A DNA stretch of 24,000 nucleotides. Source: an uncultured Eubacteriales bacterium (lineage in GTDB: Bacteria; Bacillota; Clostridia; Lachnospirales; Lachnospiraceae). A program made the position numbers and the translations under genes. Numbering within the stretch: the stretch's first letter is position 1; each line of letters begins with the position of its first letter. The DNA lies in assembly GCA_900318615.1 (NCBI GenBank), contig ONLK01000006.1:16314-40313 (forward strand), given 5' to 3'. Below, one piece after another: positions 5,240 through 22,292 of the stretch. The notes under the pieces are model-generated. The model did no database searches. It saw nothing but the letters and a program-made list of their open reading frames with translations, and was not told the origin of the DNA.

Positions 5240-5261
5240 ATATTGTGCAGCTGTTTTCTTA

Positions 5262-5288
5262 TCATTAATCTCATTAATCTCATTAATC
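5262..5288. repeat. Perfect 3x tandem repeat of the 9-mer TCATTAATC
   Basis: Read directly at 5262-5270, 5271-5279 and 5280-5288. It lies between the convergent genes asnB and punA. Confidence 0.95.
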
Positions 5289-5293
5289 AATTT

Positions 5294-5323
5294 CAGCGGT
5301 TCCATTCCGGAACCGCTGTTTTT
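5294..5323 (+). terminator. Rho-independent terminator after asnB
   Basis: CAGCGGTTCC-attcc-GGAACCGCTG (10-bp stem) followed by TTTTT. Confidence 0.85.
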
Positions 5324-5351
5324 CGCTCTAAGTTCTAAGCTCATTTTCTAT

Positions 5352-6206
5352 TCACTGCCGGTCTCCTGATTCTGTCTGTCCAAGTTCACGGACAATTTCC
5401 GTAACCAGCTTCTCAAAGGAAACCTTCACCCGGTCCGCGGTTTCCTGTACCTCCCGATGGTTCAGCGGACGGTCAAGGATACCGGCTGCCATGTTGGTGA
5501 GGCAGGAAATGGCACCTGTCCTCATGCCCATGTGATGGGCTGCGATCGCTTCACATACCGTACTCATGCCGGCGGCATCCGCTCCGAGGGTCCGGTACAT
5601 GCGTATTTCCGCAGGCGTCTCATAGTTCGGACCGGTACACTGTACGTACACACCTTCCTTCAGATCCACCCCGGTGCGGCGGGCTGCCTGTCGGATGATG
5701 TCCCTCATTTTTAAGTCATACACGTAGCTCATATCCGGGAAGCGGGTTCCCAGTTCATCGATGTTTGGTCCGATCAGAGGACTTTTGATAAAGGAAGAGA
5801 TGTGATCGGTCAGCATCATAAGATCGCCCGGGCGGAACGAAGTATTGATGGCCCCGGCTGCGTTGGTCAGGATCAGCTTTTTCGCCCCGAGCATTCCCAT
5901 CACACGGGTCGGAAGGACCACGTCGGACATAGCATACCCTTCATAGAAATGGACTCTGCCCTTCATTAACACCACCGGGACATTCTCCACATATCCGAAC
6001 AGATAACGTCCGTCGTGTCCCTGTACGGTCGATACCGGAAAACCTTCTATTTCCGAATACGGAATCTCCGACCTCACATCCATATTCCGGGCGTATTCCC
6101 CCAGACCTGAACCGAGGATCAGGGCAACCTCCGGAATAAAATCCGTCCGTTCCCGCACCGCCGCAGTACATTTCTGCAGTTTCCGGTACGCTTCTGAATT
6201 TTTCAT
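5352..6206 (-). CDS. punA: Purine nucleoside phosphorylase (trimeric PNP/PunA family)
   Basis: 284 aa. Diagnostic stretches are ALILGSGLG, GFPVSTVQGHDGRYLFG, GRVHFYEGY, NAAGAIN and GPNYETPAEIRMYRTLGADAAGMSTV. Confidence 0.92.
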   Translation of the reverse strand: MKNSEAYRKLQKCTAAVRERTDFIPEVALILGSGLGEYARNMDVRSEIPYSEIEGFPVSTVQGHDGRYLFGYVENVPVVLMKGRVHFYEGYAMSDVVLPTRVMGMLGAKKLILTNAAGAINTSFRPGDLMMLTDHISSFIKSPLIGPNIDELGTRFPDMSYVYDLKMRDIIRQAARRTGVDLKEGVYVQCTGPNYETPAEIRMYRTLGADAAGMSTVCEAIAAHHMGMRTGAISCLTNMAAGILDRPLNHREVQETADRVKVSFEKLVTEIVRELGQTESGDRQ

Positions 6207-6281
6207 AGTTCAAATTCCCCCTTTAAAAGTTCTCCGGTTCGCGTTACAGTATTCCTGATTGCTTTCATACAGGAGAACAAA

Positions 6282-6977
6282 ATGGCTAAATTATATTTTC
6301 GTTACGGCGCCATGGGCAGTTCGAAAACTGCGAATGCGCTGATGGTTCGTTACAATTACATAGAACGCGGAAGGAATGTCATTCTGCTCAAACCGCGGAT
6401 CGACCGCCGGGACGGGGAGAAGGTAATCCGCTCCCGCATCGGTCTTTCAGCGGAATGTGAGTTTGTAGAAAATTTTGTTCTATACGCAGAGAAAAACTGG
6501 AAAACCAGTGAAGACGCTTCCTGGTGTTCCTGCATCATCATCGATGAGTGCCAGTTTATGACGCCGGAGCAGGTGGACTTCATGGCCCACATTGTTGATG
6601 ACATGGATGTTCCTGTCATCTGCTACGGTCTGCGGACCGATTTTCAGTCGCACATGTTTCCAGGATCCGCGAGACTGTTTGAGCTGGCCGATGTTATCGA
6701 GCAGATTCCGACGGTCTGCTGGTGCGGGAAAAAAGCCCAGTTTAACGCACGTGTCATCGATGGAAAAATGATACGGGAAGGCGAACAGATTTTCCTCGGC
6801 GCCAATGAAAGCTATGTCGCTTTGTGCCGCCGTCACTTCATGTCCGGCCAGTTTCTTCCGCCCAAAAAACCATCCGTGAAGGACTGGGAAGCCGCTATGC
6901 AGGTCCTTCCGGAGGAGACCTTCGAGGAGGCGCATCAGGGCAGAGGTGAGGAAAAAAGCAGCAAAGAGGAGCCGTAG
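6282..6977 (+). CDS. tdk: Thymidine kinase with a ~41-aa C-terminal extension
   Basis: 231 aa. It has the P-loop GAMGSSKT, IIIDECQF, and the Zn-ribbon cysteines CWCGKK...LCRRHF. An AGGAG RBS is present. Confidence 0.92.
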   Translation: MAKLYFRYGAMGSSKTANALMVRYNYIERGRNVILLKPRIDRRDGEKVIRSRIGLSAECEFVENFVLYAEKNWKTSEDASWCSCIIIDECQFMTPEQVDFMAHIVDDMDVPVICYGLRTDFQSHMFPGSARLFELADVIEQIPTVCWCGKKAQFNARVIDGKMIREGEQIFLGANESYVALCRRHFMSGQFLPPKKPSVKDWEAAMQVLPEETFEEAHQGRGEEKSSKEEP

Positions 6978-6987
6978 TCCGCTCTTC

Positions 6988-8022
6988 TCAGACCCAACTA
7001 TGCCGAAGCATAAATTTCTGCTCTTCGGAAGCAAATGACATCTCTACCGAATTCAGATAAATCTGTTTCAGATCCTCCTTATTCAGCTTCAGATGCTCCA
7101 CGCATTTTTTAAATTCACGGGTGCTGTCCGTGCTGCTGCAGGTCCGGTTATCGGTATTGATGGAAACCGGAATGTGATGTGCCATAAATTCCTTCAGCGG
7201 ATATTCTTCCCATAAGGTGCAGGCCTTTGTCTGAAAATTACTCGTCGGGCACATTTCCACGCCTATCTTTTGATCCGCGCACAGCCGCATCAGTTCCTCA
7301 TCCCCGCTCATGGCGATCCCGTGTCCGATTCTGCGGGCGCCATGTTCAACGGCATAGCGGACATTTTCACGGCTGCCGGTCTCTCCGGCGTGGATGGTCA
7401 TCGGCATCCCCGCCTCACGGCAGCAGTCAAAGTACTCCCCGAACATTGCATTCGGGAAGGCATTTTCATCTCCGGCCAGATCGCAGGCGACAACACCGTT
7501 TCCCAGCCACCGGCTGCCCTCTTCCAGCATCTGTCTGTTCTGTTCCATCGGAAGATGACGCATGGCGCAGCAGATGACACCGTATCCGATTCCATACTGA
7601 CGGTGTGCTCTTTCCAGTCCGTCTATGACACTGGAGATGGAATCGTGCAGTGTCATTCCCCGGGTCAGGCATATCTGCGGTGCATAACGCACCTCCAGAT
7701 ACACAACATTCTCCGCGTGGGCGTGCCGTCCCAGATAATAAGCCGCTTCGTTTAAAAAATCAGCATCCTGAATGCAGCGGATCGGCAGGTCAAACTTTTC
7801 CAGATACTCTGCCAGTGACCGGCAGCTGTCATCGACACCAACCCTCTGCATGACCTCTTCCGCCGTCATTTTCATCCCCAGTTTTTCCATTTTCTCCCGA
7901 ATCAGAAATGGCTCAATCGATCCGTCCAGATGACAGTGAAGATCAATCTTCGGCATGGCCTCTGCCAGCAGGAGAGTCTCTTTTTCAGAAGAATCCCGGT
8001 CTGTGTTCCTATTCCATTCCAT
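6988..8022 (-). CDS. add: Adenosine deaminase
   Basis: 344 aa. It has the metal-binding KIDLHCHLDGS, HAGE (TIHAGETG) and SINTDN motifs. The AAGGAG RBS lies 10 nt upstream. Confidence 0.92.
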   Translation of the reverse strand: MEWNRNTDRDSSEKETLLLAEAMPKIDLHCHLDGSIEPFLIREKMEKLGMKMTAEEVMQRVGVDDSCRSLAEYLEKFDLPIRCIQDADFLNEAAYYLGRHAHAENVVYLEVRYAPQICLTRGMTLHDSISSVIDGLERAHRQYGIGYGVICCAMRHLPMEQNRQMLEEGSRWLGNGVVACDLAGDENAFPNAMFGEYFDCCREAGMPMTIHAGETGSRENVRYAVEHGARRIGHGIAMSGDEELMRLCADQKIGVEMCPTSNFQTKACTLWEEYPLKEFMAHHIPVSINTDNRTCSSTDSTREFKKCVEHLKLNKEDLKQIYLNSVEMSFASEEQKFMLRHSWV

Positions 8023-8038
8023 GTGTCAAACACTCCTT

Positions 8039-8067
8039 AAAAAATCAGGCGGGGATTCCCGCCTGAT
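8039..8067 (-). terminator. Intrinsic terminator between the last permease gene and add
   Basis: The minus strand reads ATCAGGCGGG-aatc-CCCGCCTGAT (10-bp GC-rich stem) followed by TTTTT. The T-run leads directly into the add AAGGAG RBS. Confidence 0.8.
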
Positions 8068-8092
8068 TTGAAATTTGCATCCGCTGCTGCCG

Positions 8093-9028
8093 TTATTTTG
8101 CCTTTACGAAAATCTTTCCATTGGCAGCCGGTGCGTTTGCTCTTCCGACGACCAGTACCAGAGCGAGAATGGTAACCACATACGGAATCATGGAAATCAG
8201 ATTGGGAGATACCATGTTGCTCTGACTGGCCAGTGTACGGATGCCGGTGCAGAAACCAAACAGCAGGCAGGCGAGCGTTGCGCCGCCCGGAGAGAATTTT
8301 CCGAAGATAACCGCTGCGATGGCAATGAAGCCCTGCCCGACAATGACGTTCGGGCGGAATTGATTGATGGTTGCCAGCGTTACAAAAGCGCCGCCCAGAC
8401 CGGAAAGGAATCCGGAAAGAATAACGCAGATATAGCGGACACCATACACATCGATACCCAGTGTTTCACAGGCTTCCGGGTGCTCCCCGCAGGCTCTCAG
8501 ATGCGAACCGAATTTCGTCTTGTAGAAAACAAACCAGCACAGCGCCGCTACGGCAAATACGAGGAATGCAGGCACGTACACATTCAGCACGTTGGCCCCG
8601 AAGGAACCGGTCTTAAAAACCCCCTCGAAAAATCTGGGAAGTTTATCGCTGGTATCCAGCGCCGGTGTGTCCGAGGAGTTGTCAAACATTGCCTTGCAAA
8701 GAAACAAAGCCAGCCCCTGCCCCAGGAAGTTGATGGCGGTGCCGGCGATCGTCTGGTCCGCATGAAGTGAAATGCAGACGATCGCATGAATCAAAGCCAG
8801 CGCCGCACCTGCCAGACCTCCGCACAGCCAGGCGATCCATCCGTTATGGCAGATCAGACCCATCACGGAACCCGTGAAAGCGCCGATGGTCATCATACCT
8901 TCAATACCGATGTTTACCACTCCGCTTCGCTCGGAAAAGCAGGAACCAAGCGCTGCAAAAAGAAGCGGCGGCGTAGCGATCAAAGTCGCATTCAAAAGAA
9001 GTCCGAGATTTTTAATAATGACATCCAT
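8093..9028 (-). CDS. ABC transporter permease, BMP/nucleoside (NupQ/RnsD/YufQ-like) family
   Basis: 311 aa polytopic membrane protein (FSERSGVVNIGIEGMM). Its start overlaps the stop of the upstream permease by 1 nt. Confidence 0.88.
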   Translation of the reverse strand: MDVIIKNLGLLLNATLIATPPLLFAALGSCFSERSGVVNIGIEGMMTIGAFTGSVMGLICHNGWIAWLCGGLAGAALALIHAIVCISLHADQTIAGTAINFLGQGLALFLCKAMFDNSSDTPALDTSDKLPRFFEGVFKTGSFGANVLNVYVPAFLVFAVAALCWFVFYKTKFGSHLRACGEHPEACETLGIDVYGVRYICVILSGFLSGLGGAFVTLATINQFRPNVIVGQGFIAIAAVIFGKFSPGGATLACLLFGFCTGIRTLASQSNMVSPNLISMIPYVVTILALVLVVGRANAPAANGKIFVKAK

Positions 9029-10104
9029 TATTCTGCCTCCTCACTCTTTCTGCGGATTTTCATAAACAGTTCCTTAAATACGTGCGTGATGGCAATGAGA
9101 ATAATGACGCATCCCATGATGATGTTGATAACTTCCGAGGGAGCGTGAACCATCGTCAGCTTTGAACCGCCGTATTTCATAGCACCGTAAAAAATACCGG
9201 AGAAAATGCATCCGACCGGACTGGATCCGCCGATCAGCGCCACCGAGATTCCTTCGAAACCGAAGCCCTCCTGCGCAGCCAGCTGACTCAGGCGCCCACC
9301 CATGCCGAGTGTCTGAACAGCTCCGCCCAGGCCGGCCAGGGCTCCGGAAATGCCCAGAGCGGTCAGAACCGATTGATCGGAGTCGATGCCGGCGAAACGG
9401 GCTGCACTTGCATTGAAGCCGACGGCCTTCAGCCTGAAGCCGAGCGTTGTTTTCTCAATAATAATGAAGATAAGGATGGCTGCCACAATAGCGATCACAA
9501 TGCCGGCATTCGCCTGACTGCAATCCAGAAAATCCCGGAATGCCTTCGGCCACAGCAGGCGGGCGCTGTCATGAACATCCCTTGTAGCCTCGCCGCCGCC
9601 TTCCTTGTGAATAGCCTTGATGTTAACGATGTAGTTTTGCAGATAAAAGGCAATCCAGTTGAACATGATGAAGGAAAGAACTTCATGTATTCCCCTTTTA
9701 ACCTTCATGATGCCGACGATCATAGACCATACGTACCCCGCCGCCATGGCGGCCATCAGGCAGAGCGGAATCTCCAGCACCGCCGGCAGATCCACAAAGA
9801 TACCGATCAGACAGGAAGCAATACACCCCATAATATACTGACCCTCGGCACCGATGTTGAAGATTCCGGTACGGAAGGAAAATGCAACCGAAAGACCGGT
9901 CAGCATGATCGGGCTTGCATAGATCAGAGTATATACCAGGTATTTGGGTTTGCTGAAAACACTGCTCAGCAGTTTTCCGTAAGCCACGGACGGTGAAATG
10001 CCTGCGATCTGCAGAAAGATAGCTCCGATCAGAAAGCCAATCAGGATGGCGATGACCGTATAAAGAATGCTGCTGTCGAAAATGCTTTTTCTCTTCGTTT
10101 TCAT
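9028..10104 (-). CDS. ABC transporter permease, BMP/nucleoside (NupP/RnsC/YufP-like) family
   Basis: 358 aa polytopic membrane protein (FNIGAEGQYIMG). There is a 4-nt ATGA-type overlap with the ATPase stop. Confidence 0.88.
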   Translation of the reverse strand: MKTKRKSIFDSSILYTVIAILIGFLIGAIFLQIAGISPSVAYGKLLSSVFSKPKYLVYTLIYASPIMLTGLSVAFSFRTGIFNIGAEGQYIMGCIASCLIGIFVDLPAVLEIPLCLMAAMAAGYVWSMIVGIMKVKRGIHEVLSFIMFNWIAFYLQNYIVNIKAIHKEGGGEATRDVHDSARLLWPKAFRDFLDCSQANAGIVIAIVAAILIFIIIEKTTLGFRLKAVGFNASAARFAGIDSDQSVLTALGISGALAGLGGAVQTLGMGGRLSQLAAQEGFGFEGISVALIGGSSPVGCIFSGIFYGAMKYGGSKLTMVHAPSEVINIIMGCVIILIAITHVFKELFMKIRRKSEEAE

Positions 10105-11660
10105 TCTTTCCTTCCTCCTGCCATCATGAAGCCGAGTTCCTTTTCATCCGCATCCTTGCCGGACACGCTGCCGTTGATCTTCCCATTGAAAATAACCTCG
10201 ATGCGGTCGGAAAGACTCATAATTTCATCCAATTCGAAGGAAACGAGCAGAACCGCACGCCCCTTGTCCCGCTGCTCCACCAGATATTTGTGGACGAACT
10301 CGATGGCACCGACATCCAGCCCCCGGGTCGGGTTGACTGCGATCAGAAGATCCTTATCGTTCGTCACCTCGCGGGCAATGATTACCTTCTGCTGATTGCC
10401 TCCGGACAGTGTTCCCGCCGGATGCGCCTCTGCCCCGCGCGGACGGACATCAAATTTATCCATCAGTCCGGTGGCATGGTCATGAATAGCCTTCTTATTC
10501 AGCATACCCTTGTGGGAATACGGCTCCTCCTCAAAATGCTGAAGCACCATATTGTTTTCAATGGAAAAATCCAGAATCAGGCCGTATTTCTGACGGTCCG
10601 CCGGAATGCTGGATAGTCCGGCCTCGAAAATCTGCTTAGGCGTGTGATTGACAATCTCCTGCCCGTGCATCTTCACCGAACCGGAATCCGCTTTCTTTAA
10701 GCCGGACAGGATCTCTACAAGCTCCGTCTGTCCGTTGCCGTCGACACCGGCAAGGCCTACAATTTCGCCGGCATGAACCTGAATATTGAATCCCTTCAGG
10801 ATTTCCACACCGCGGTAATCCTTCGCGTGCAGATCCCTCACGTCCAGAACCAGGTCTCCCGGTTCCTGCTCTTTCTTGTCCACCGTGAATTTAACATCCC
10901 GGCCGACCATCATGGAAGCCAGCTGATTTTCACTTACATCGCTGACCTTCACGGTGTCAATATATCTGCCCTGCCGGATGATGGTACAGTAATCGGAGGA
11001 GGCTGTTATTTCTTTCAGCTTATGCGTGATCAGAATAACACTTTTCCCATCTGCCGTCAGGTTCTGAATGATTTCCATCAGGCCGTCGATTTCCTGCGGT
11101 GTCAGAGAAGCCGTCGGTTCATCAAGAATAAGCACCTCCGCGCCGCGGTAAAGAACCTTCAGGATCTCGACACGCTGCTGCATGCCGACCGAAATATCCT
11201 GAATCTTCGCGTCCGGGTCTACCTTCATGGAATACCGCTCTGAAAGCTCCATAACTCTGTCCCGGGCCTTTTTTACATCCACCACCAGTCCCCTGACAGG
11301 TTCAACACCAAGAATAATGTTTTCGGTTACAGTAAAAGGAGGTATCAGCATAAAGTGCTGATGTACCATTCCAATTCCAAGATCAGACGCATATTTCGGA
11401 CTGCTGATATTTACCTCTTTTCCCTTGAGAAAAATCTGACCGCTGGTCGGACGGTACAGCCCGCACAGCACGTTCATCAGCGTACTCTTCCCGGCTCCGT
11501 TTTCGCCCAGAATAGCGTGAACCTCCCCTTTGTGGACTTTCAGATTAATGTGGTCATTGGCGGTAAAACTGCCGAATTTTTTGACAATATCCCGCATCTC
11601 AACCACGACTGTAGTCGGGTCCATGTGGCTTTCGTGACTCACTGCTTCAACCTCCTCCAT
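10101..11660 (-). CDS. Duplicated-cassette ABC ATP-binding protein of the nucleoside/simple-sugar importer (NupO/RnsB/YufO-like)
   Basis: 519 aa. It has Walker A GENGAGKST, the signatures VGMQQRVEILK and LSGGNQQKV, and two Walker B motifs (LILDEPT, LIAVNPTRGLD). The ATG at 11660 is 5 nt after the activase stop. Later in-frame starts (M13, M22) are possible. Confidence 0.9.
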   Translation of the reverse strand: MEEVEAVSHESHMDPTTVVVEMRDIVKKFGSFTANDHINLKVHKGEVHAILGENGAGKSTLMNVLCGLYRPTSGQIFLKGKEVNISSPKYASDLGIGMVHQHFMLIPPFTVTENIILGVEPVRGLVVDVKKARDRVMELSERYSMKVDPDAKIQDISVGMQQRVEILKVLYRGAEVLILDEPTASLTPQEIDGLMEIIQNLTADGKSVILITHKLKEITASSDYCTIIRQGRYIDTVKVSDVSENQLASMMVGRDVKFTVDKKEQEPGDLVLDVRDLHAKDYRGVEILKGFNIQVHAGEIVGLAGVDGNGQTELVEILSGLKKADSGSVKMHGQEIVNHTPKQIFEAGLSSIPADRQKYGLILDFSIENNMVLQHFEEEPYSHKGMLNKKAIHDHATGLMDKFDVRPRGAEAHPAGTLSGGNQQKVIIAREVTNDKDLLIAVNPTRGLDVGAIEFVHKYLVEQRDKGRAVLLVSFELDEIMSLSDRIEVIFNGKINGSVSGKDADEKELGFMMAGGRKE

Positions 11661-11665
11661 GTCTG

Positions 11666-12508
11666 TCAGATCAGAATGATTTTTTCATAATCCATCTGTC
11701 TGAGAATTTCTTCCAGCTCTTCAAGATACCGGCGGCTGGGAACCGTCAGGTTTTTAAATTCCGGCCTTACGCCCATCGGGCGGAAAGCGATCAGCTTCAT
11801 CAAAAACGGGTGCATGTCATAGTACGGTTTCAGGAACCTGCCTGCCTGTGTCACACTGTTTTTTGTATCGTAGAGGTCCGGAGCAATAACAAAGCGAACT
11901 TCCTCCAATTTCCCGTTTTTCCCGAGATAAACGGCATTTTCCAGCACGGTCCGGTTTGTATGTCCGGTCACATGAATGCACTGCTGCTCGTCAAATGCCT
12001 TGATGTCCAGCATAACTCCGTCCGTAACCTTCATCAGGTCCGGATAGGAATCAAAGGCGATGGTACCGTTGCTGTCGATCAATGTCCCCAGCCCGTCGGC
12101 ACGAGCCATGGAAAACAGCTCCGTAAGGAACTGCGGGTGCAGCATGCACTCGCCGCCTGAAACGGAAATTCCGCGGATATAGGGGATCTGTTTCTTCACC
12201 CGCTCGTATACCTGCGCCGCATCCCACAGATGCGTGCGCGGGGTGCTGTCGTACGGGCATATATGAATGCAGGTATCGCACTGGCAGCACAGGCGCTCGT
12301 CCCATACCACGTTTCCGTCCTTCATGGACAGAGCGCCGGCCGGGCAATTAGATACACAGACACCGCAGTTTACGCACATCCCGCGGGTTTCCGGGTTATG
12401 ACAGTATTTGCAGCGGATATTGCATCCCTGCAGGAACACGGCGGTCCGGTTGCCCGGCCCGTCCACGCTGCTGAAAGGGATAATCTTATTGACAAGAACT
12501 TTTTCCAT
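11666..12508 (-). CDS. yjjW: Glycyl-radical enzyme activating protein (radical SAM), YjjW-like, with two extra ferredoxin-type Cys clusters
   Basis: 280 aa. The N-terminal activase signature is SVDGPGNRTAVFLQGCNIRCKYCHNPE (CX3CX2C at about 12401-12424). Two additional clusters follow: CVNCGVCVSNCP and CCQCDTCIHICP. The RBS GGAGAA is present. It begins 17 nt after the GRE stop. Confidence 0.88.
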   Translation of the reverse strand: MEKVLVNKIIPFSSVDGPGNRTAVFLQGCNIRCKYCHNPETRGMCVNCGVCVSNCPAGALSMKDGNVVWDERLCCQCDTCIHICPYDSTPRTHLWDAAQVYERVKKQIPYIRGISVSGGECMLHPQFLTELFSMARADGLGTLIDSNGTIAFDSYPDLMKVTDGVMLDIKAFDEQQCIHVTGHTNRTVLENAVYLGKNGKLEEVRFVIAPDLYDTKNSVTQAGRFLKPYYDMHPFLMKLIAFRPMGVRPEFKNLTVPSRRYLEELEEILRQMDYEKIILI

Positions 12509-12525
12509 ATTCTGTTCTCCGCCGG

Positions 12526-14070
12526 TCAGCGTACCTTGCGCTCCAGAATGTGTCCGTTTTTAGAAGCGCCCAGGCCGAGGGCTGTTGTATCATGAATAAC
12601 AGCCTCATTTTTGTCAAGCTTTTCCATCTCCGAGCGTTTAACCAGATATCCGGTTACACGGATCACATCGCTGTCGCTGGAATAGAAGGAAAGGTAACGC
12701 AGGTTCTCGCGGAAGCTTCCCTTGATGATATCCAGAACATACTCCGGATTGCGGTGAACGGTCATGTCGATCGGGAAAATGTCACCCGTGCCGGACGGGA
12801 AATACTTGTGGAAATGACTCAGAACATTCAGCTGATCCACCAGTTCATCCGGCTCCTCCCCGATCGGGATACGGGTACCCGGCGTTACGCCGACATCGCT
12901 GGCAATACCAACCTGTGCGTGAAGCAGGAAATGCCCGCCTGTAACCTCGCAGTACTTGTTGTAATGATTCTTGTTGAAGGCATCAATGATGTCCATGATC
13001 TCAACGCCGAGCTTCGTAGCATTGTCGGTGTGTCCAAAATGTCCTTCCACGCCCTCCTTCTTCAGCAGGATATTGACTGCCTCCGCCAGGCCGACCAGTC
13101 CGAACATGGCCGTAAAACGGTCGCGGTGAATAAATCCCTCCCGTGCCAGGAAGCTGTTCTCAAAAAATTCGCTTTCCTCAACCTCGAACTTAATTCTCGC
13201 ATCCATATAGCGGGCCATAATGTCCATCACATACGGAAGCTGATTCTTCTCGAAGTCTTCGATGTTTTTTGAGCGCTTTGCAATATTGCCGAGGATCAGA
13301 CGGCACAGGGTGTAGGAACCTCCGCCGTACGGAAGTCCGTTGTAGCAGCTGGCAATGACATAATCCTTTGTCAGCTCGCTTTCAAACATTTTATTATTGG
13401 CAAAACTGGGCTTTGCGCATTTCAAGGCACAGTTGATTGCTTTCAGTGTAAAATCGTCCGGTGTGATGTTTTCATCATACTTCATGGAAAGGTTTGGAAC
13501 CGCGTCCTGAAGTTCAGCTTCCGCCTCAAAAATATATTCGGCCGTTCTGGAAGCCTTCGGTCCGATGTCCGCATGCGAAAAGGAATCCAGAATGGTGCGG
13601 TCGCAGTTCTGGAGGAAAAGCCGGATCAGCTTTCTGGCGGTCGCCTCATCGACGGTATCGATGAACGGCTCCAGCAGATCATCCAGTTGTCCCATGTATA
13701 CCGGATAATTGGTGACGCTGGGGACATGCTTGTAGAAAATCAGAAGCGTATTGAGCGCTTCAAAAAGGTCCTTCGGCGGATCCAGTCTCAGATAACTGCA
13801 TCCTTCCTTCATCAGTTTTGCATAGTCCGGCGCAATATAGCGCGGACGCATGGGTGCATGGCCTTCGGAAAGATCACAGATGCACTGTGTATCTATCGGC
13901 GCATACAGAAGTTCATCGAGTCCTTCCGGCTTATCCAGAACCTCCAGCAGCGAATCCGCCTCCTGGGCCATGACAGCAACTTTCTGCTCATGTGTGAGCG
14001 TCGAACTTTTGATGGTGTCAAGAATCTGCTGTCTTGTCTGGTTGACACGTTCCATTGAGATATCTCGCAT
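12526..14070 (-). CDS. yjjI: YjjI-family (DUF3029-type) predicted glycyl-radical enzyme, substrate unknown
   Basis: The ORF is 12526..14094. I prefer the start at MRDISMERV (14070) because AAGGAG lies 8 nt upstream. That gives about 514 aa. The C-terminal glycyl-radical motif DVIRVTGYLVKR (Gly codon 12649-12651) sits about 40 aa from the end. A dedicated activase lies immediately downstream. The size and C-terminal motif are as I recall for E. coli YjjI. Confidence 0.8.
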   Translation of the reverse strand: MRDISMERVNQTRQQILDTIKSSTLTHEQKVAVMAQEADSLLEVLDKPEGLDELLYAPIDTQCICDLSEGHAPMRPRYIAPDYAKLMKEGCSYLRLDPPKDLFEALNTLLIFYKHVPSVTNYPVYMGQLDDLLEPFIDTVDEATARKLIRLFLQNCDRTILDSFSHADIGPKASRTAEYIFEAEAELQDAVPNLSMKYDENITPDDFTLKAINCALKCAKPSFANNKMFESELTKDYVIASCYNGLPYGGGSYTLCRLILGNIAKRSKNIEDFEKNQLPYVMDIMARYMDARIKFEVEESEFFENSFLAREGFIHRDRFTAMFGLVGLAEAVNILLKKEGVEGHFGHTDNATKLGVEIMDIIDAFNKNHYNKYCEVTGGHFLLHAQVGIASDVGVTPGTRIPIGEEPDELVDQLNVLSHFHKYFPSGTGDIFPIDMTVHRNPEYVLDIIKGSFRENLRYLSFYSSDSDVIRVTGYLVKRSEMEKLDKNEAVIHDTTALGLGASKNGHILERKVR

Positions 14071-14230
14071 AACATTACTCCTTGCAGGGTTCACCCCGAA
14101 ATAATTTGAAACATTGCTGGCATCCGAAGCTTAATCCGGTCATTCTGCCGGGGGATAGCAGCCGGGACACAGGGTAAAGGCTGCAGCGCACTGTCCTGAG
14201 AAGCCTCTGAAGTTGGGACAGCCGCTATAG
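14071..14230 (-). promoter_or_regulatory. Structured ~160-nt leader in front of the GRE gene (candidate cis-regulatory RNA, class unknown)
   Basis: Minus-strand pairings visible by eye are CTGTCC...GGACAG, GCAGCC...GGCTGC, CCGG-cagaatga-CCGG, long-range CCCCG...CGGGG, and GGG-gtgaa-CCC next to the RBS. The region looks more GC-rich than the other intergenic regions in the window. Confidence 0.3.
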
Positions 14231-14261
14231 TAACACAAAGACGGAACCTTTACGGGTTCCG
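14231..14261 (-). terminator. Terminator-like hairpin after the binding-protein gene (probably a partial, intra-operon terminator)
   Basis: The minus strand reads CGGAACC-cgtaaa-GGTTCCG followed by TCTTTGTGTT. Confidence 0.45.
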
Positions 14262-14322
14262 CCCTTTTGTTAACCATAAATACTGTCACGAAATTAAAAT
14301 CCGCAACATGACCGCCTGCCGG

Positions 14323-15366
14323 TCAGTCATCCAGCTCGTAGATATCGCCGTACTTCTCCTCAAACTCTTCTTTGGTCTTCGGAACAACGACTTCTCCGGA
14401 AATGATCTTTTCCTTAACGTCATCAACAGCTGCAATTACGTCGTCGGAAAGAAGGTCCGTTGTCGGAGCAATATCAACGCCGCCATGAGCCAGATCATAC
14501 TCATGAATTCCGCTCTCCAGCTTATCCTGGATCAGCTCTTCGGTTGTCTCATATACGGCGTTATCTACTCTCTTCATTGCGGAGGTGATAACGGTATCCG
14601 GAGCGATGGAGCTCTGGTCAGAGTCAACACCGATGGCTTTGATTTTCGCTTCCTGGCATGCTTCGATCACGCCGAGTCCCGTAGCGCCTGCCGCGTGGAA
14701 GATTACATCGGCACCGTTGGTGATTTCCTGGTTGGCCATGGACTTTCCGGTTGCGGAATCGGAGAAGGAGTTTGCGTTCTGCTGAAGGACGGTTGCGTCC
14801 GGGTTGGCATCCTTGACACCTGCCAGATAGCCGTATCCGAACTGGTTCATCGTATCGTTGGCCATGCCAAGTACAAAACCGACCGTGTTGGTTTCGGTTA
14901 CCAGACCTGCGACATAGCCTACCAGATAGGAAGCCTGCTCCTGACGGAACATAAGACAGGTAACATTGTCAAGATCAGAGCAGCTTGAATCATCAATGAT
15001 AGCGAATTTCTGATCCGGATTCTCCTCTGCGGCGGATCTCATGGCATCGGCCAGCATGTAGCCTACGCAGATGATCAGGTCGCAGTCCTCATCCATAAAG
15101 CTTTCGATGTTCGGAGTGTAGTCAGCATCTGTCTTGGATTCCAGATAGTTCACGGTTACGCCGAAATCCTCGCCTGCCTTCTGAAGGCCTTCCCATGCGC
15201 TCTGGTTGAAAGAACCATCATTGACACCGCCGACATCCGTAACCAGACCTACGGAAAAATCAGATCCGTCCAGATCCGGAGCCTCCGTTGCGGACTCTGC
15301 GAAGGCAGGTGCCGCCATTGCCAGTACCATGGATGCCGATAAAATCACTGATAATGCTTTTTTCAT
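14323..15366 (-). CDS. BMP-family (PnrA/TmpC/NupN-like) ABC substrate-binding protein, nucleoside-binding type
   Basis: 347 aa. An N-terminal signal sequence is followed by VGLVTDVGGVNDGSFNQSAWEGL, the typical BMP-family nucleoside-binding N-domain. An AAGGAGAG RBS is present. Confidence 0.9.
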   Translation of the reverse strand: MKKALSVILSASMVLAMAAPAFAESATEAPDLDGSDFSVGLVTDVGGVNDGSFNQSAWEGLQKAGEDFGVTVNYLESKTDADYTPNIESFMDEDCDLIICVGYMLADAMRSAAEENPDQKFAIIDDSSCSDLDNVTCLMFRQEQASYLVGYVAGLVTETNTVGFVLGMANDTMNQFGYGYLAGVKDANPDATVLQQNANSFSDSATGKSMANQEITNGADVIFHAAGATGLGVIEACQEAKIKAIGVDSDQSSIAPDTVITSAMKRVDNAVYETTEELIQDKLESGIHEYDLAHGGVDIAPTTDLLSDDVIAAVDDVKEKIISGEVVVPKTKEEFEEKYGDIYELDD

Positions 15367-15428: not shown

Positions 15429-15457
15429 ATTATAGTCTGTACATGACTTTATTACAA
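15429..15457 (-). promoter_or_regulatory. Candidate promoter of the nucleoside-transporter/GRE operon
   Basis: The minus strand reads TTGTAA, a 17-nt spacer, then TATAAT. It lies about 60 nt upstream of the binding-protein ATG. Confidence 0.5.
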
Positions 15458-15493: not shown

Positions 15494-16354
15494 TCAGTCG
15501 CTTACGCCGGTATCGAAGTAGTAATCCCCGAATACTTTCCCGGCCTCATCGGAGAGTACAAACTCCTCAAAGTCCGCCGCAGCCGCCGTCTGTGCATCGT
15601 CCGCTTCCCCGTTCTTAATCTGGGCAATCGGATAAATGATATTTCCGGAAACATCGTACGGAACAACTTCCAGGACATCCACCTTATCCTCAAAGCCATA
15701 CGTATCCGAAGAATAGGTCGTTCCTGCTTCGCAGGATCCTTCCGCGACGGTCTGAAGAACCTTGCTTACGTTCCCCTGCTCGCTGATCTCAACGCCGCCG
15801 AGCGCGTCCGAAACTTCCTGCGTCGTGAAGGTGGACGGGTCGTCTCTCTTCTCCAGAATACCAAGGTTCATCAGTGCCTGACGGGTATATTTTCCGACCG
15901 GGACGCTGCCGTCCGCAAGAGCAAGGCTGGAAGCATCCTTCAAAGTCTCCAGCCCTTTGACCTTCGTGCCGCTGTTCTTCCAGGTTATAACAACCAGCTG
16001 GTTGTTCAGTACATTGTGCCGCGTATCCTCCACGACGAGTCCGTCCTCCTCCAGCTGATCCATCTGCTTTTGAGCTGCGCTGAAGAACAGATCGCACGCA
16101 TAGCCTTCCTCAATCTGGGTCATCAGCTTGCCGGAGCTGTCCGCATTGAAGGTGATGGTAACATTCGGATGGGTTTCATTGTATTTCTTCGCCAGTTCCG
16201 TCATAACATTATTCAGGCTGGCTGCAATGAAAACCTGGATTTCAACCGGCTTTGTTCCGGCCGCCGCCCCGGCTTTGCTCTGGGCAGACGCTGGCGCGTA
16301 AAGGCAGGCCGTCATTGCTCCTGACAGTACCAGGGATAATAATTTTTTCTTCAT
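15494..16354 (-). CDS. modA: Molybdate ABC transporter substrate-binding protein
   Basis: 286 aa. It has a signal peptide with a possible lipobox (GAMTAC). Family motifs are VFIAASL, FNADSSGKL and DLFFSAA. Confidence 0.88.
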   Translation of the reverse strand: MKKKLLSLVLSGAMTACLYAPASAQSKAGAAAGTKPVEIQVFIAASLNNVMTELAKKYNETHPNVTITFNADSSGKLMTQIEEGYACDLFFSAAQKQMDQLEEDGLVVEDTRHNVLNNQLVVITWKNSGTKVKGLETLKDASSLALADGSVPVGKYTRQALMNLGILEKRDDPSTFTTQEVSDALGGVEISEQGNVSKVLQTVAEGSCEAGTTYSSDTYGFEDKVDVLEVVPYDVSGNIIYPIAQIKNGEADDAQTAAAADFEEFVLSDEAGKVFGDYYFDTGVSD

Positions 16355-16376
16355 TTAGTCTCCACCTGTTAAAATC

Positions 16377-16874
16377 TTAAAATTTAAAATCACCGCTTTT
16401 ACCGCCGCTTTTACCGAGCAGATGAATGTCCGTCATAACCATCCGCTTATCGATGGCCTTGCACATGTCATAGACCGTCAGAAGTGCCGTTGAAACTCCC
16501 GTCAAAGCTTCCATCTCCACGCCGGTCCTTCCATCTGTCTTAACGGTACAGAAAGCGCGTATTTCTTTTTTTTCAGGATTCATTTCAAAGGTAACCGCTG
16601 CATGGGTGAGGTTCAGAATATGACACATCGGGATAAGCTCCGACGTTTTTTTGCACCCCATAATTCCGGCTACCTGCGCTACCGTAAGCACATCCCCTTT
16701 TTTGACCTTTTTCCCCTCCACAGCGTCAAAAATTTCCGGACTTACCTGAATGGTGCCGGTCGCCGTGGCTTCCCGATGGGTTATGTTCTTTCCGGAAACG
16801 TCCACCATCCGGGCATTTCCATCTTCATCAAAATGAGTAAATTCCATGTCTGTGTGATTTCGCCGGATCTTCAT
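16377..16874 (-). CDS. moaC: Cyclic pyranopterin monophosphate synthase MoaC
   Basis: 165 aa. Family motifs are [23 protein letters not shown] and GVEMEALTG. The start overlaps the modC stop by 4 nt (ATGA). Confidence 0.92.
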
Positions 16875-17935
16875 CCCTGAAGAAACAGCATGTCCCTTTC
16901 ATTCATTCCGAGGTAATCAGGCATTCCCTTTTCCTCAACTTCGTGTTTTATGCTTCGCTGGGCAAACCAGCAGATGTATTCCGGATTCCCCGGCTGAATT
17001 TTTCCCTGCGGTATCAGATAATAATTTTTTTCAAACGGCAGCTGTGCGCTGTCCGCCACCTGTACCGGGAAGCTGTTTACAGCCCTTTTGCCCCACACGG
17101 GCACAAAAAAGTGAGCCCGGTATCCCAGACTGTCCGTGCCCTCCGGAATTTCACGCTCCGTCTGAAGTTCCATTCCCCAGTCCGTCAGATACGCATGGTG
17201 TGAATCCCGGCGGACGAGACCGGTGTAATTTTTGCATCCGGTCAGCCGGGCCGCCGCCCGGCGCCGCGGGTTCGCAAAAACTTCCTTTGTCTCCCCCTCA
17301 CAGACCACGGATCCCTGATCCATCACAATCAGCCGATGACAGAACCGGTAAATTTCATCCCGGTTATGAGAAACCAGGATCATACTGCCGCGGTATTCCT
17401 TCAGCATTTCTTCCATCTGCTGCTGCAGCTGATCCTTCAGGAAGGAATCCATGGCAGAGAACGGTTCATCGAGAAGAATGACCTCCGGTTCATACGCCAT
17501 CAGCCGCGCCAGTGCGACCCGCTGCTGCTGTCCTCCGGAAAGATGCAGCGGATATCGGTTCGCCAGATTGCTGACATGGAACTTTTCCATCATTTCCGCA
17601 GCCCGCCTCCGGTTTTCGCCGCGCGAGCCGGAAAGACCAGCCATGATGTTCTGTTCTACGGTCATGGTCGGGAAAAGCGCATAGTTTTGAAAAAGATACC
17701 CGATCCTTCGCTTCTGCGGCGGCAGATTGATTTTGCCTGTGCTGTCATAAAGAACCCGCTCTCCGATCCTTATTTTCCCCGAATCCGGTTTCACAATTCC
17801 GGCAATGCTTTTCAGCGTCATGCTCTTGCCGCAGCCGGAGGCTCCCAGAATACCGATGCGGCCTTCCGTCTCCTGAAGATCAAGATCAAGAGTGAATTCA
17901 TTCAGTTTTTTTCGGATCCTGATTTCAAGTTCCAT
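16871..17935 (-). CDS. modC: Molybdate ABC transporter ATP-binding protein (ModC-like)
   Basis: 354 aa. It has Walker A GASGCGKS, the signature [13 protein letters not shown], Walker [12 protein letters not shown] and a C-terminal accessory domain. It lies directly downstream of modB. Confidence 0.85.
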
Positions 17936-17960
17936 GCTCTTTCAACCTCTGTGATTTATT

Positions 17961-18665
17961 TTACCAGCGTTCCACATTTTTCATTTTCCTTCCGGTAACC
18001 ATGTTCATGGCGAATATAATGCCGAATGCGATGATCAGCACAATAACCGTCCAGATGCCTGCGGTCAGATAATCGCCGTCCTGGATTACCATGGCAATTC
18101 TCTGGGAGATGGTTGCCGTTTTTCCCGGAATATTGCCGGCCAGCATGGAGGTGGCTCCGTACTCCCCGAGTGCCCGGGCAAAGGTCAGAATGGTGCCCGA
18201 AACAACACCGGGGCCGGCTGTCGGAAGAATAACCTTCCAGAAGATTTTCGTCTCCGACATGCCCAGGGTACGCGCCGCATAGACCAGGTTCACATCAATC
18301 TGTTCAAAGGCCGCTCTCGCATTCCGATACATCAGAGGGAAAGCGATGACGGTTGCTGCGAGAATGCATCCCAGCCAGCTTTGCACTACCCGGAGGCCGA
18401 ACTGCCCGTACAGGAAACGTCCGAACGGACGGCGCAGGCTGAAAAGCAGCAGCAGAAAAAAACCGGCTACCGTAGGCGGCAGTACCATCGGAAGGGTCAG
18501 TATTCCGTCGATTACGGATTTGGTTCCCGGCCCGCACCGGATGACCTTTCGCGCAGCAAAAATTCCAAGGAAAAAGGAAAGGACCGTCGCAACAATGCCG
18601 GTTTTCAGGGAAATCCACAGGGGACTATAGTCCAGCGATTTCAGTATTTCTATAATCTCATCCAC
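17961..18665 (-). CDS. modB: Molybdate ABC transporter permease
   Basis: 234 aa. Family motifs are LPMVLPPTVAGFFLL, ARTLGMSE and FARALGEYGAT. Confidence 0.9.
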   Translation of the reverse strand: MDEIIEILKSLDYSPLWISLKTGIVATVLSFFLGIFAARKVIRCGPGTKSVIDGILTLPMVLPPTVAGFFLLLLFSLRRPFGRFLYGQFGLRVVQSWLGCILAATVIAFPLMYRNARAAFEQIDVNLVYAARTLGMSETKIFWKVILPTAGPGVVSGTILTFARALGEYGATSMLAGNIPGKTATISQRIAMVIQDGDYLTAGIWTVIVLIIAFGIIFAMNMVTGRKMKNVERW

Positions 18666-18713
18666 TTTTATACCTCCGTCGGATCCATACTTTCCACATG
18701 TCCGGCAGGCCGG

Positions 18714-20891: not shown

Positions 20892-21004
20892 TTCAGATAA
20901 CCCCTCAATATCAAAAGGCTGCCGTGCGAAATACGAATCAATGCGGTATTCCGGCGTCAGCCCTGTCATTCTGTCTTTTCCCTTTGTTTGGAACGTCCGC
21001 CCGA

Positions 21005-22198: not shown

Positions 22199-22292
22199 TT
22201 TTTATCTCCTGTTTTATCAAAATATCAGCCGGGGGAATCAGCGCATTTCCGCTGACGTCCCCCCATGTTCCAGCGTCTCTGTTTCCTGCCTG

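Follow-up and report, generated by a model that had tools for sequence, protein, structure and literature searches.

Why a glycyl radical enzyme (GRE) and its activase should lie inside a probable nucleoside importer operon, and on what the enzyme acts there, are the questions raised by this locus, which was analyzed within a stretch of 24,000 nucleotides (the window). The yjjI and yjjW genes are already known, and YjjI is a well-conserved, O2-sensitive enzyme. As expected, no demonstrated function of YjjI was found in the literature searched, in a June 2026 GRE review, or in the Escherichia coli K-12 RefSeq annotation, in which the protein is named “DUF3029 domain-containing protein.” The recurrent link to nucleoside uptake and breakdown described below narrows the search for the YjjI substrate, and the function of the enzyme is now directly testable.

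Organization of the Operon

The operon lies on the minus strand in the order BMP gene, 252-nt spacer, GRE, activase, ABC ATPase, permease 1, permease 2, and terminator. The gene order, coordinates, gaps, and overlaps given in the initial annotation agree to the base with the open reading frame list, and the GRE pair does lie where it was placed, with the binding-protein gene of a BMP-type importer on one side and the ATPase gene on the other. The first gene (14323..15366, minus strand) encodes the BMP/PnrA-family substrate-binding lipoprotein of a probable nucleoside ABC importer (PF02608, 281.6 bits). Between its ATG (15366) and the modA stop codon (15494) sits a candidate σ70-like promoter, TTGTAA-17-TATAAT (15429..15457, minus strand), for which the evidence is a consensus scan (10 of 12 positions matched).

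The spacer (14322-14071) leads into the YjjI-family GRE gene (12526..14070, minus strand). The mechanical open reading frame of this gene begins with a GTG at 14094; the ATG at 14070 has a Shine-Dalgarno-like AAGGAG ahead of it and yields a protein of 514 amino acids, a length common to nearly all close homologues. The gene for the 280-residue YjjW-family radical SAM activase (11666..12508, minus strand) follows after 17 nt, and 5 nt separate it from that of the 519-residue ABC ATPase (10101..11660, minus strand), in which PF00005 matches in two stretches that correspond to duplicated nucleotide-binding domains. The ATPase gene overlaps that of permease 1 (9028..10104, minus strand; PF02653, 146 bits) by 4 nt, and this in turn overlaps the gene for permease 2 (8093..9028, minus strand; PF02653, 149 bits) by 1 nt; both permeases are of the BPD_transp_2 type.

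An intrinsic terminator read from the sequence (8039..8068, minus strand) closes the operon. Its stem pairs perfectly over 11 bp around a 4-nt loop and is followed by a T run (AATCAGGCGGG-AATC-CCCGCCTGATT, then further T; 8068-8039), and the ribosome-binding site and ATG (8022) of add come directly after it, with the add start 17 nt past the T run. Within the 252-nt spacer, a terminator-like match and inspection of the sequence point to a GC-rich hairpin followed by a T-rich tract (14242..14261, minus strand), which is probably a partial terminator or an mRNA-stabilizing element. No Rfam family was matched. Across 67 related loci, most spacers have a GC hairpin and T run directly 3′ of the BMP stop codon, and in eight the spacer is 36 nt or less. 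We infer co-transcription across the operon: the transcript probably begins ahead of the BMP gene, the hairpin after this gene probably lets the binding-protein message build up in excess, and read-through would extend into yjjI, yjjW, and the genes for the ATPase and two permeases before stopping at the strong terminator.

That nucleoside genes flank the operon proved true of one side only. Downstream of the terminator lie adenosine deaminase (add; 6988..8022, minus strand; TIGR01430, 279 bits against a cut-off of 217), thymidine kinase (tdk; 6282..6977, plus strand; PF00265; NF003300, 224 bits against a cut-off of 195), and a PunA-type purine nucleoside phosphorylase (5352..6206, minus strand; NF006054, 358 bits against a cut-off of 218). 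Directly upstream of the BMP gene are modA, moaC, modC, modB, and a gene for a MoCF-domain protein, none of them nucleoside genes, and beyond these are genes for carbamate kinase, YgeW, and YgeY.

A Probable Nucleoside Importer

The window importer has the usual BMP/PnrA set in one operon, namely a PnrA-like protein, a duplicated ATPase, and two BPD_transp_2 permeases. Its relatives include Treponema pallidum PnrA/TmpC (170 bits between the window binding protein and TmpC), Streptococcus pneumoniae PnrA, and “transporter L” of Clostridium thermocellum. To our knowledge, the characterized PnrA, NupNOPQ, and Rns operons contain no GRE. The window binding protein is 67% identical over 317 amino acids to C. 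thermocellum Lbp (PDB 7X0R), for which ligand density in a 1.5-Å crystal structure was fitted by the authors as guanosine (PMC9601137). This identity argues for import of nucleosides by the window system, in agreement with the initial annotation.

Family, Motifs, and Fold of YjjI

Profile searches placed both proteins above curated cut-offs for the families to which they had been assigned. The GRE scored 682.7 bits against TIGR04040 (NCBIfam cut-off 498.3), with profile positions 1-497 of 497 covered, and 728.9 bits (cut-off 23) against PF11230, which Pfam names “Glycyl radical enzyme YjjI-like.” The activase scored 358.6 bits against TIGR04041 (cut-off 250.2). It contains the radical SAM motif CX3CX2C (Cys29, Cys33, and Cys36) and two ferredoxin-type cysteine motifs of the CX2CX2CX3C type (C45/48/51/55 and C74-84) and is of the two-auxiliary-cluster type used by non-RNR GREs.

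The glycyl radical motif RVxG[FWY] is present in the GRE as R471-V-T-G474-Y475. In an alignment of 22 divergent family sequences, Arg471 is invariant and Gly474 nearly so. The sole cysteine invariant across the family is Cys242 of an S-C-Y-N loop in which Asn244 is at least 90% conserved. Another cysteine, Cys65, is replaced by His, Tyr, Asp, or Thr in several lineages. In an AF2 model of the GRE (pLDDT 90.9, pTM 0.90), strands 237-240 and 244-247 flank Cys242, which occupies the tip of a finger loop; judged from sequence motifs and the topology of the secondary-structure elements, it would be adjacent to Gly474.

E. coli K-12 YjjI (b4380) is 42% identical to the window GRE over its full length. 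The two share the RVTGY motif, the S-C-Y-N Cys loop, a length of ∼515 residues, and an adjacent activase, and both activases (b4379 in E. coli) have two auxiliary Fe-S motifs. Both YjjI genes adjoin nucleoside catabolism genes. However, the window pair is inside a BMP-type importer operon, whereas the E. coli yjjW-yjjI pair lies outside any transporter operon as the divergent neighbor of deoCABD, with a yjjI-deoC interval of 257 bp; the link to deoCABD given in the initial annotation is thus real.

The model has a ten-stranded β/α barrel that Foldseek related with a probability of 1.00 both to class III RNRs and to PFL-like GREs. In the comparison with NrdD and PFL envisaged at the outset, the class III RNRs were the nearest solved folds (8p23_B, E value 4e-16, TM-score 0.72 normalized to the query; T4 NrdD, 1h78, TM-score 0.71). 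NrdD and YjjI are alike in having a glycyl radical loop, a thiyl cysteine on a finger loop, and a nucleoside or nucleotide link. Their sequences, by contrast, are only 13-14% identical, hhalign of YjjI against E. coli NrdD returned a probability of 5%, and the match to PF13597 (Pfam NRDD) was partial and marginal (29.2 bits versus 26.2). YjjI matched none of the NCBIfam NrdD models and no ATP-cone model, and in the alignment of 22 sequences neither a second, bottom-face active-site cysteine nor the C-terminal cysteines of a zinc ribbon were conserved. NrdG is not known to have ferredoxin-type clusters; YjjW, with its two, scores far higher against eliminase-type activase models.

The PFL-like eliminases and isomerases compared were glycerol and propanediol dehydratases, HypD, CutC, YbiW, and PflD, of which the last two process anhydro-sugar phosphates. 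These enzymes use a single catalytic cysteine for redox-neutral radical cleavage of C-O or C-N bonds, and their activases share the PFLE_PFLC type with YjjW. They are nevertheless larger than YjjI (∼770-810 versus 514 residues), the TM-score is only about 0.6, and the Pfam PFL-like match of YjjI is faint. A Cys-X-Glu motif defines their Cys loop (PMC13450708); it was not found on the Cys loop of YjjI, which has Cys-Tyr-Asn instead.

Gene Neighborhoods of YjjI

Gene neighborhoods were compared across about 170 related loci. The link to nucleoside transporter, deo, udp, add, and rih genes was strong and repeated, but about two thirds of the loci from divergent lineages were stand-alone YjjI-YjjW pairs.

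In close relatives, a BMP transporter adjoins YjjI in 74 of 75 usable genome loci and in 24 of 25 metagenome loci. The arrangement is widespread and not particular to the window. YjjW was found in 69 of the 75 genome loci, Udp in 41, DeoC in 34, and Add, following the transporter, in 25. At least three gene orders keep YjjI with the transporter, namely BMP-YjjI-YjjW-ATPase, BMP-ATPase-perm-perm-YjjI-Udp-DeoB-YjjW-DeoD-DeoC, and BMP-YjjI-Udp-DeoB-Crp/Fnr-YjjW-ATPase. The many Lachnospiraceae-type loci, being related by common descent, amount to no more than a few independent events. Among the loci compared, the ygeW cluster stands next to YjjI in the window only: a carbamate kinase match occurred in 1 of 80 related loci, and ygeW or ygeY in none of the 80.

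In divergent lineages, one arrangement has YjjI-YjjW followed in turn by an IU-type ribonucleoside hydrolase, a distant BMP transporter (36% identical), and, further on, Udp; another is NupC-YjjI-YjjW. Edwardsiella has yjjI-yjjW divergent from deoCABD together with NupC, and DeoC and Pdp are near YjjI in Natronincola. No nucleoside gene was present within 8 kb of YjjI in 24 of 36 usable metagenome loci or in six of 10 individual genome contexts, E. coli counted among the 10; the six are Proteus, Caminicella, Tepidibacter, Lutispora, Haloimpatiens, and an Atribacteria MAG. Such stand-alone pairs adjoin unrelated genes, e.g. ruvAB-queA-tgt, addAB, and urocanase. In Caminicella, a DHFR gene overlaps the start of yjjI. 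Tandem paralogous YjjI-YjjW pairs (46% identical) occur as well.

Anaerobic Expression of YjjI Orthologues

Anaerobic induction of the E. coli orthologue has been shown to be FNR-dependent, with yjjI activated directly by FNR (PMC3688515), and yjjI of Yersinia is expressed 4.3-fold higher anaerobically (PMC3792023). CRP peaks have been mapped within yjjI and in the yjjI/deoC intergenic region (PMC4287617).

Proposed Function and Alternatives

The reading preferred here, to which a probability of roughly 0.55 is assigned, is that the region is a single operon for nucleoside uptake plus processing that is used under anoxia and that YjjI is a redox-neutral GRE. The interpretation in the initial annotation, that the enzyme acts on an imported nucleoside or its sugar, is supported to this extent: a nucleoside-derived substrate appears likely, and the choice of the pentose as the target is put at a little under an even chance. 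YjjW, with SAM and a reduced [4Fe-4S] cluster, would be expected to put a radical on Gly474, which would be handed to Cys242, the only conserved cysteine, and the resulting thiyl radical would take a hydrogen atom from the substrate. YjjI is without a second active-site cysteine, an ATP cone, a zinc ribbon, and Cys-X-Glu, and redox-neutral C-O or C-N cleavage is therefore the most likely chemistry; given a nucleoside-linked substrate, redox neutrality is favored, if not strongly. Dehydration, elimination, and ring-opening isomerization are all candidate reactions. The enzyme may act on the pentose moiety of a ribonucleoside after import, or else on ribose or pentose phosphate that Udp, DeoD, PunA, or Rih-type enzymes and DeoB have freed from it, and the product would feed central fermentation.

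It is tentatively proposed, at slightly less than even odds, that YjjI represents a third structural branch of GREs that carries out an undescribed O2-independent radical cleavage or rearrangement, acting on the pentose of imported ribonucleosides or of a nucleoside refractory to the usual enzymes. With its RNR-like core, single cysteine, and C-Y-N loop, the enzyme would be neither an “anaerobic RNR” nor “PFL-like.” If true, this would add a new step to the anaerobic fermentation or salvage of nucleosides, one common among gut Clostridia and also found in E. coli.

The fold similarity to class III RNRs and the marginal Pfam NRDD match would also suit a minimal RNR-like reductase that removes the 2′-OH from an imported ribonucleoside, ribose 1-phosphate, or ribose 5-phosphate with formate, abundant in anaerobic E. 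coli, as the reductant. The product would pass to DeoC, yielding acetaldehyde and glyceraldehyde 3-phosphate, or to deoxynucleoside kinases for salvage of DNA precursors, and deoC at related loci and beside E. coli yjjI, tdk in the window, and the Caminicella DHFR gene fit this scheme. However, all known classes of RNR deliver a hydrogen atom via a bottom-face cysteine, and class III enzymes re-reduce a pair of cysteines in the active site. RNR-type reduction by YjjI, and with it the RNR-like 2′-OH elimination listed among possible chemistries in the initial annotation, is disfavored because only one cysteine, Cys242, is conserved across the family, Cys65 being replaceable; the missing ATP cone and zinc ribbon, the distance from NrdD in sequence, and an activase that is not NrdG-like likewise make such a reductase unlikely. 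Little weight is similarly given to action on the freed nucleobase rather than the sugar, for example by opening or rearranging the ring of uracil, thymine, or a purine without O2. The commonest catabolic neighbors (Udp, the uridine/inosine-type hydrolase, Pdp, DeoA, DeoD, and PunA) do free bases, add is in the window, and a cluster of the anaerobic purine degradation type (carbamate kinase, YgeW, and YgeY) with molybdenum genes lies 0.1-8 kb upstream. Yet the bases freed by these partners differ and the pentose is the common product, genes for the sugar-handling DeoB and DeoC are interspersed with those for YjjI and YjjW, no GRE is required in the known anaerobic routes for pyrimidines and purines, and the ygeW cluster adjoins YjjI in the window alone.

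Known nucleoside catabolism through a phosphorylase, DeoB, DeoC, and the pentose phosphate pathway needs no radical step, and this counts against the preferred reading. Handling of a non-canonical nucleoside closed to ordinary phosphorylases and hydrolases, such as pseudouridine (a C-glycoside) or a 2′-O-methyl or 5′-deoxy nucleoside, would account for having a radical enzyme at all. The reaction would resemble the way in which YbiW and PflD open the ring of anhydro-sugar phosphates. Sugars whose anomeric carbon is locked are exactly what GRE isomerases act on, and the tandem paralogous pairs suggest diversified substrates. No result singles out a specific modified nucleoside, though, and E. 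coli already has PsuK and PsuG for pseudouridine. BMP-type binding proteins take a range of nucleosides, PnrA being described as binding various ligands, but the ligand with which the orthologous protein co-purified was fitted as plain guanosine (PMC9601137), and this possibility too is judged improbable. Finally, the role of the pair might have nothing to do with nucleosides, the two genes having simply entered a transporter operon and been passed on with it. The stand-alone pairs that predominate in divergent lineages and the common ancestry of the Lachnospiraceae-type loci speak for such hitch-hiking. It is nonetheless considered very unlikely, given that the linkage survives at least three rearranged gene orders, involves unrelated types of partner (the BMP ABC transporter, its 36%-identical paralogue, NupC/CNT, phosphorylase, hydrolase, and the deo operon), and occurs in both Clostridia and Enterobacterales.

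A figure legend in the C. thermocellum study lists “pgm, hp, rsam” beside lbp (PMC9601137), a hint, short of proof, that this GRE pair adjoins lbp in that organism as well and went unnoticed.

Organization of the operon and identity of its genes

An ORF list of the window reproduced every coordinate, gap and overlap reported in the initial annotation. On the minus strand, the gene for the BMP-type binding protein (15366-14323) is followed by a 252-nt spacer, the gene for the YjjI-family glycyl radical enzyme (GRE; 14070-12526), a 17-nt gap, the gene for its YjjW-family activase (12508-11666), a 5-nt gap and the ATPase gene (11660-10101). The first permease gene (10104-9028) overlaps the ATPase gene by 4 nt, and the second (9028-8093) overlaps the first by 1 nt. 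A sigma-70-like candidate promoter, TTGTAA-17-TATAAT (15457-15429), is present upstream of the BMP gene, and an intrinsic terminator of the textbook type (8068-8039) lies downstream of the second permease gene. The mechanically called GRE ORF begins at GTG 14094; given that ATG 14070 has a Shine-Dalgarno-like AAGGAG ahead of it and yields the 514-aa length common to almost all close homologues, the start at 14070 chosen initially is the correct one.

The add, tdk and punA genes that had been placed beside the operon were all identified downstream. The ribosome-binding site and start codon of add (ATG 8022) directly follow the terminator; tdk, on the plus strand, comes next, and then a gene for a PunA-type purine nucleoside phosphorylase. 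Only 17 nt separate the end of the terminator from the add start codon (window 8022-8068), which leaves no room for a promoter, such that add would be expressed by read-through or from a promoter within a permease gene. A search for riboswitches and other RNA families gave no Rfam match across the window, the 252-nt spacer included.

Both proteins of the GRE pair scored above the curated cut-offs of the families to which they had been assigned. The GRE matched PF11230 with 728.9 bits and TIGR04040 with 682.7 bits (cut-off 498.3), and the activase matched TIGR04041 with 358.6 bits (cut-off 250.2); the window genes clearly belong to a known orphan family. The glycyl motif of the GRE is R471-V-T-G474-Y475. 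The activase contains a CX3CX2C motif (C29, C33, C36) together with two cysteine motifs of the ferredoxin type, an arrangement found in the activases of GREs other than RNR and PFL, and its best matches outside the YjjW family were the activases of hydroxyproline dehydratase and sulfopropanediol dehydratase, not NrdG.

Probable ligand of the importer

The binding protein is of the PnrA/BMP type (PF02608, 282 bits), the ATPase contains a pair of ABC domains, and both permeases are BPD_transp_2 proteins. Over 317 residues it shares 67% identity with the structure PDB 7X0R: here "it" is the binding protein, and the structure is that of the Lbp protein of Clostridium thermocellum. The ligand density of Lbp is not fitted by laminaribiose or cellobiose but is fitted by guanosine, the protein-ligand contacts resemble those of Treponema pallidum PnrA, and a C. 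thermocellum transporter-L insertion mutant grows normally on laminaribiose (PMC9601137). Because the experimental structure of a close orthologue fits guanosine, nucleoside import is supported beyond family membership, and the misnamed "laminaribiose-binding protein" of C. thermocellum is corrected to the nucleoside-binding BMP protein of such a system. The legend of the gene map for that cluster names "lbp, pgm, hp, rsam" (PMC9601137), where "hp" is probably YjjI, "rsam" YjjW and "pgm" a DeoB-type mutase.

Conservation of the linkage among close relatives

A scan with one genome per species yielded 80 loci in which YjjI is 72-80% identical to that of the window. All were annotated by tblastn, and 75 had usable flanks. 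By this annotation, a BMP transporter was present in 74 of the 75 loci, YjjW in 69, uridine phosphorylase in 41, DeoC in 34, DeoB in 32 and add in 25. The contiguous order BMP-YjjI-YjjW-ATPase was found in 53 of all 80 loci, and the direct flanks of YjjI were BMP and YjjW in 58. Three loci (L039, L040 and L056) have the order BMP-ATPase-permease-permease-YjjI-Udp-DeoB-YjjW-DeoD-DeoC, each protein being confirmed with curated models, and two (L044 and L048) have BMP-YjjI-Udp-DeoB-(Crp/Fnr-like regulator)-YjjW-ATPase-permease-permease. At L030 a second transporter copy has the activase alone between its BMP and ATPase genes. The YjjI-transporter linkage outlasts rearrangement of gene order. The arrangement is common in Lachnospiraceae-type genomes, which makes the window an ordinary case.

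The spacer 3' of the BMP gene varies from 5 to 488 nt across related loci and usually contains a GC hairpin and a T run, a common device for over-producing the mRNA of a binding protein; in eight loci it measures 36 nt or less. This pattern supports a single operon.

At five loci (L007, L024, L067, L069 and L026), YjjI is placed between BMP and ATPase with no activase adjacent to it; the activase of L026 is 5 kb downstream. A Crp/Fnr-family regulator with cNMP-binding and HTH_Crp_2 domains (e.g. L044 13841-14557) was found near YjjI in 28 of the 75 close genome loci (tblastn) and in 14 divergent metagenome loci (ORF clustering), and the same regulator is upstream of YjjI in L123, L124, L126, L150 and L163. 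It is a candidate for a dedicated anaerobic or ligand-responsive regulator of the YjjI system. Two typical Lachnospiraceae-type BMP-YjjI operons (L004 and L075) are on contigs that the MAG records label Senegalimassilia and Parolsenella (Actinomycetota), for which mis-binning is likely and horizontal transfer less likely.

YjjI in other lineages

The initial search returned thousands of homologues, with hundreds of members in certain clusters. When 1.84 billion cluster representatives were searched exhaustively, 523 matches were obtained, among which only about two dozen were both full-length and 37-47% identical to the query. The YjjI family is small, and its members are plentiful among Clostridia of the gut and rumen.

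In E. coli K-12, yjjW-yjjI and deoCABD are neighbours transcribed divergently, which confirms the adjacency given in the initial annotation. Edwardsiella has the same deoCABD-divergent arrangement together with a NupC-type transporter, and in a relative whose YjjI is 65% identical to that of E. coli the order NupC-YjjI-YjjW is found on one strand, 70 nt apart. A nucleoside neighbour is absent from the Proteus YjjI locus. One NCBI protein of 574 aa (P0124) joins E. coli YjjI (100% identity) to a DeoC-family domain (PF01791); given that yjjI and deoC are divergent neighbours, it probably reflects an error of assembly or gene calling rather than a genuine fusion.

YjjI of a third clostridial lineage is ∼497 aa long. 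In Natronincola, BMP-type permeases, DeoC and Pdp are encoded just upstream of YjjI; this cluster (L090 3017-7815) also contains a sulfatase and an anaerobic sulfatase-maturating radical SAM enzyme, placed between LacI regulator/DeoC/Pdp and YjjI-YjjW. In Caminicella, a dihydrofolate reductase gene overlaps the start of yjjI. The overlap is 8 nt in Caminicella sporogenes (L087 7499-8008), which suggests translational coupling, and this is the sole context that points to deoxynucleotide/thymidylate metabolism instead of catabolism. Stand-alone YjjI-YjjW pairs occur in Tepidibacter, Lutispora, Haloimpatiens and an Atribacteria MAG.

When metagenomes were scanned with a profile built from divergent members, 52 loci with less than 65% identity to the window were recovered, 36 with usable flanks. 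A BMP-type or NupC transporter was located within 8 kb of YjjI in 12 of the 36; the other 24 are stand-alone, some beside ruvAB-queA-tgt. An inosine/uridine-type ribonucleoside hydrolase is encoded directly 3' of YjjW in nine of these loci, not all of them independent because several are near-identical copies from different samples. The order in these loci is Crp/Fnr-like regulator (divergent), YjjI, YjjW, hydrolase, BMP', ATPase' and two permeases, with Udp further on, and BMP' is 36% identical to the BMP protein of the window. One metagenome contig (L095) carries two tandem YjjI-YjjW pairs (4721-6962 and 7995-10353) whose GREs, at 46% identity, may be paralogues with different substrates, as their sequences suggest.

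When all lineages are taken together, YjjI is joined to nucleoside genes in at least six different arrangements, and its partners comprise transporters of three types, unrelated or barely related to one another, and enzymes of three kinds that cleave glycosidic bonds. The census called for in the initial annotation shows a strong and repeated nucleoside link, but one that is absent in many lineages.

Predicted structure of YjjI

An AF2 model of YjjI built from 50 sequences had a pLDDT of 90.9 and a pTM of 0.90. Comparison of the model with NrdD and PFL, as envisaged in the initial annotation, placed class III RNR folds closest: the top Foldseek matches in the PDB were class III RNRs, including that of P. 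copri (8p23_B; E 4e-16, query-normalised TM-score 0.72) and T4 NrdD (1h78; TM-score 0.71), followed by PFL-like dehydratases and isomerases at a TM-score of ∼0.6. A sequence search of the PDB revealed no solved YjjI relative (best match E 0.69).

In the model, short strands flank C242 on either side (237-240 and 244-247) and G474 is located between strands 469-472 and 475-478, such that the two loops are predicted to form the expected finger-loop pair. C242 is the sole invariant cysteine across 22 divergent sequences. Further invariant or near-invariant polar residues are R77, D130, H166, N193, K220, N225, R257, E311, Q386, D392, R400 and R471, among which R77, D130, H166, R257, E311 and R400 are candidate pocket residues. 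C65, in an ICD motif, is invariant in Lachnospiraceae and Enterobacterales, the two best-sampled lineages; its replacement in other lineages led to its rejection as a counterpart of the second NrdD cysteine. Alignment of the YjjI profile with E. coli NrdD by hhalign gave a probability of 5%, too weak for residue mapping.

A June 2026 review classes every non-RNR GRE as "PFL-like", describes a Cys-X-Glu loop kept in GRE eliminases and isomerases, and describes an active-site cysteine pair that is re-reduced in class III RNRs (PMC13450708). YjjI fits neither description: its core is RNR-like but has one conserved cysteine in contrast to class III RNRs, and its loop is Cys-Tyr-Asn whereas that of the PFL-like eliminases and isomerases is Cys-X-Glu.

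Expression and earlier proposals

The deo P1/P2 regulatory region reaches into the yjjI/deoC intergenic area. CRP ChIP-seq peaks are found inside yjjI and in this intergenic region (PMC4287617). The yjjI gene belongs to an operon class that FNR activates directly and that is expressed more highly without oxygen (PMC3688515), and in Yersinia intermedia yjjI and yjjW were up 4.3- and 2.1-fold, respectively, under anaerobic conditions (PMC3792023). The only earlier functional proposal found for YjjI placed it in nitrogen metabolism because it is co-expressed with nar genes (PMC3228777), a pattern that is explained by shared FNR control.

No functional assignment of YjjI/YjjW was found in the full-text literature, subscription-only papers aside, although a very recent one is conceivable. 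RefSeq K-12 gives no function ("DUF3029 domain-containing protein YjjI"), NCBIfam gives none (TIGR04040 and TIGR04041 are both "hypoth_equivalog"), and neither "yjj" nor "nucleoside" occurs in the text of the 2026 GRE review (PMC13450708).

Proposed role and alternatives

The nucleoside-processing interpretation is supported as far as computation reaches, and we put the probability that the substrate of YjjI is nucleoside-derived at roughly 0.75. Under anoxia, the lipoprotein would capture nucleosides for import, YjjW would activate YjjI, and a thiyl radical on Cys242 would initiate redox-neutral cleavage of a C-O or C-N bond in the nucleoside pentose. Alternatively, the target may be ribose or a pentose phosphate freed by Udp, DeoD, PunA or Rih enzymes and DeoB. 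That the pentose is the target is a tentative reading, at slightly less than even odds; the pentose is the only product that all partner enzymes share, and the sugar-only enzymes DeoB and DeoC are interleaved with the GRE pair. A reaction directed at the nucleobase, against which these sugar-only enzymes speak, is improbable.

That YjjI is a formate-dependent reductase would be in keeping with its RNR-like core. The single conserved cysteine and the Cys-Tyr-Asn loop argue against RNR-type reduction, one of the chemistries considered initially and now disfavoured, and we regard such a reductase as unlikely. The structure instead favors redox-neutral chemistry, with the thiyl radical taking up a hydrogen atom and giving it back later, an argument that leaves the identity of the substrate unspecified. 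To our knowledge, no radical step is required for the canonical breakdown of nucleosides, which leaves the physiological need for YjjI unexplained; this is the main weakness of the proposed role. A non-canonical nucleoside might supply such a need; the fit of guanosine to the orthologous binding protein points elsewhere, and we give this possibility little weight. The stand-alone pairs would be compatible with no functional link to nucleosides at all, which the recurrence of the linkage in separate arrangements renders very improbable, the least probable of these readings.

YjjI is one of the E. coli GREs still without a function, and GREs have repeatedly been found behind key anaerobic gut chemistries, including the metabolism of choline, hydroxyproline, propanediol and anhydro-sugars. 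With a GRE linked to nucleoside uptake, the use of RNA- and DNA-derived nutrients by anaerobes would gain a further step. The value of the present analysis lies in the strength and recurrence of the nucleoside link, the experimentally supported importer ligand and the structural argument on chemistry, which together make the long-open question of YjjI function directly testable. The context narrows the substrate search to a short panel of purchasable nucleosides, pentoses, pentose phosphates and bases, and two genetically tractable hosts are available, E. coli and C. thermocellum, the latter with its existing transporter-L mutant, an intron insertion with polar effects on downstream genes.

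Genes upstream of the operon

Upstream of the BMP promoter candidate are modA, moaC, modC, modB and a MoCF-domain gene (15494-19736), followed by genes for carbamate kinase (TIGR00746), YgeW and YgeY (19947-23768, minus strand); these are not nucleoside genes. YgeW is a knotted carbamoyltransferase (759 bits) and YgeY a selenium-linked hydrolase (612 bits). The latter three genes, just upstream of the block of molybdenum uptake and cofactor genes and close to the nucleoside operon, resemble part of the ygeW-ygeY set tied to anaerobic purine (xanthine/urate) degradation. The moaC gene (16377-16874) is wedged between modC, which it overlaps by 4 nt, and modA; this cofactor-biosynthesis gene inside a molybdate ABC transporter string parallels the GRE pair inside the nucleoside transporter.
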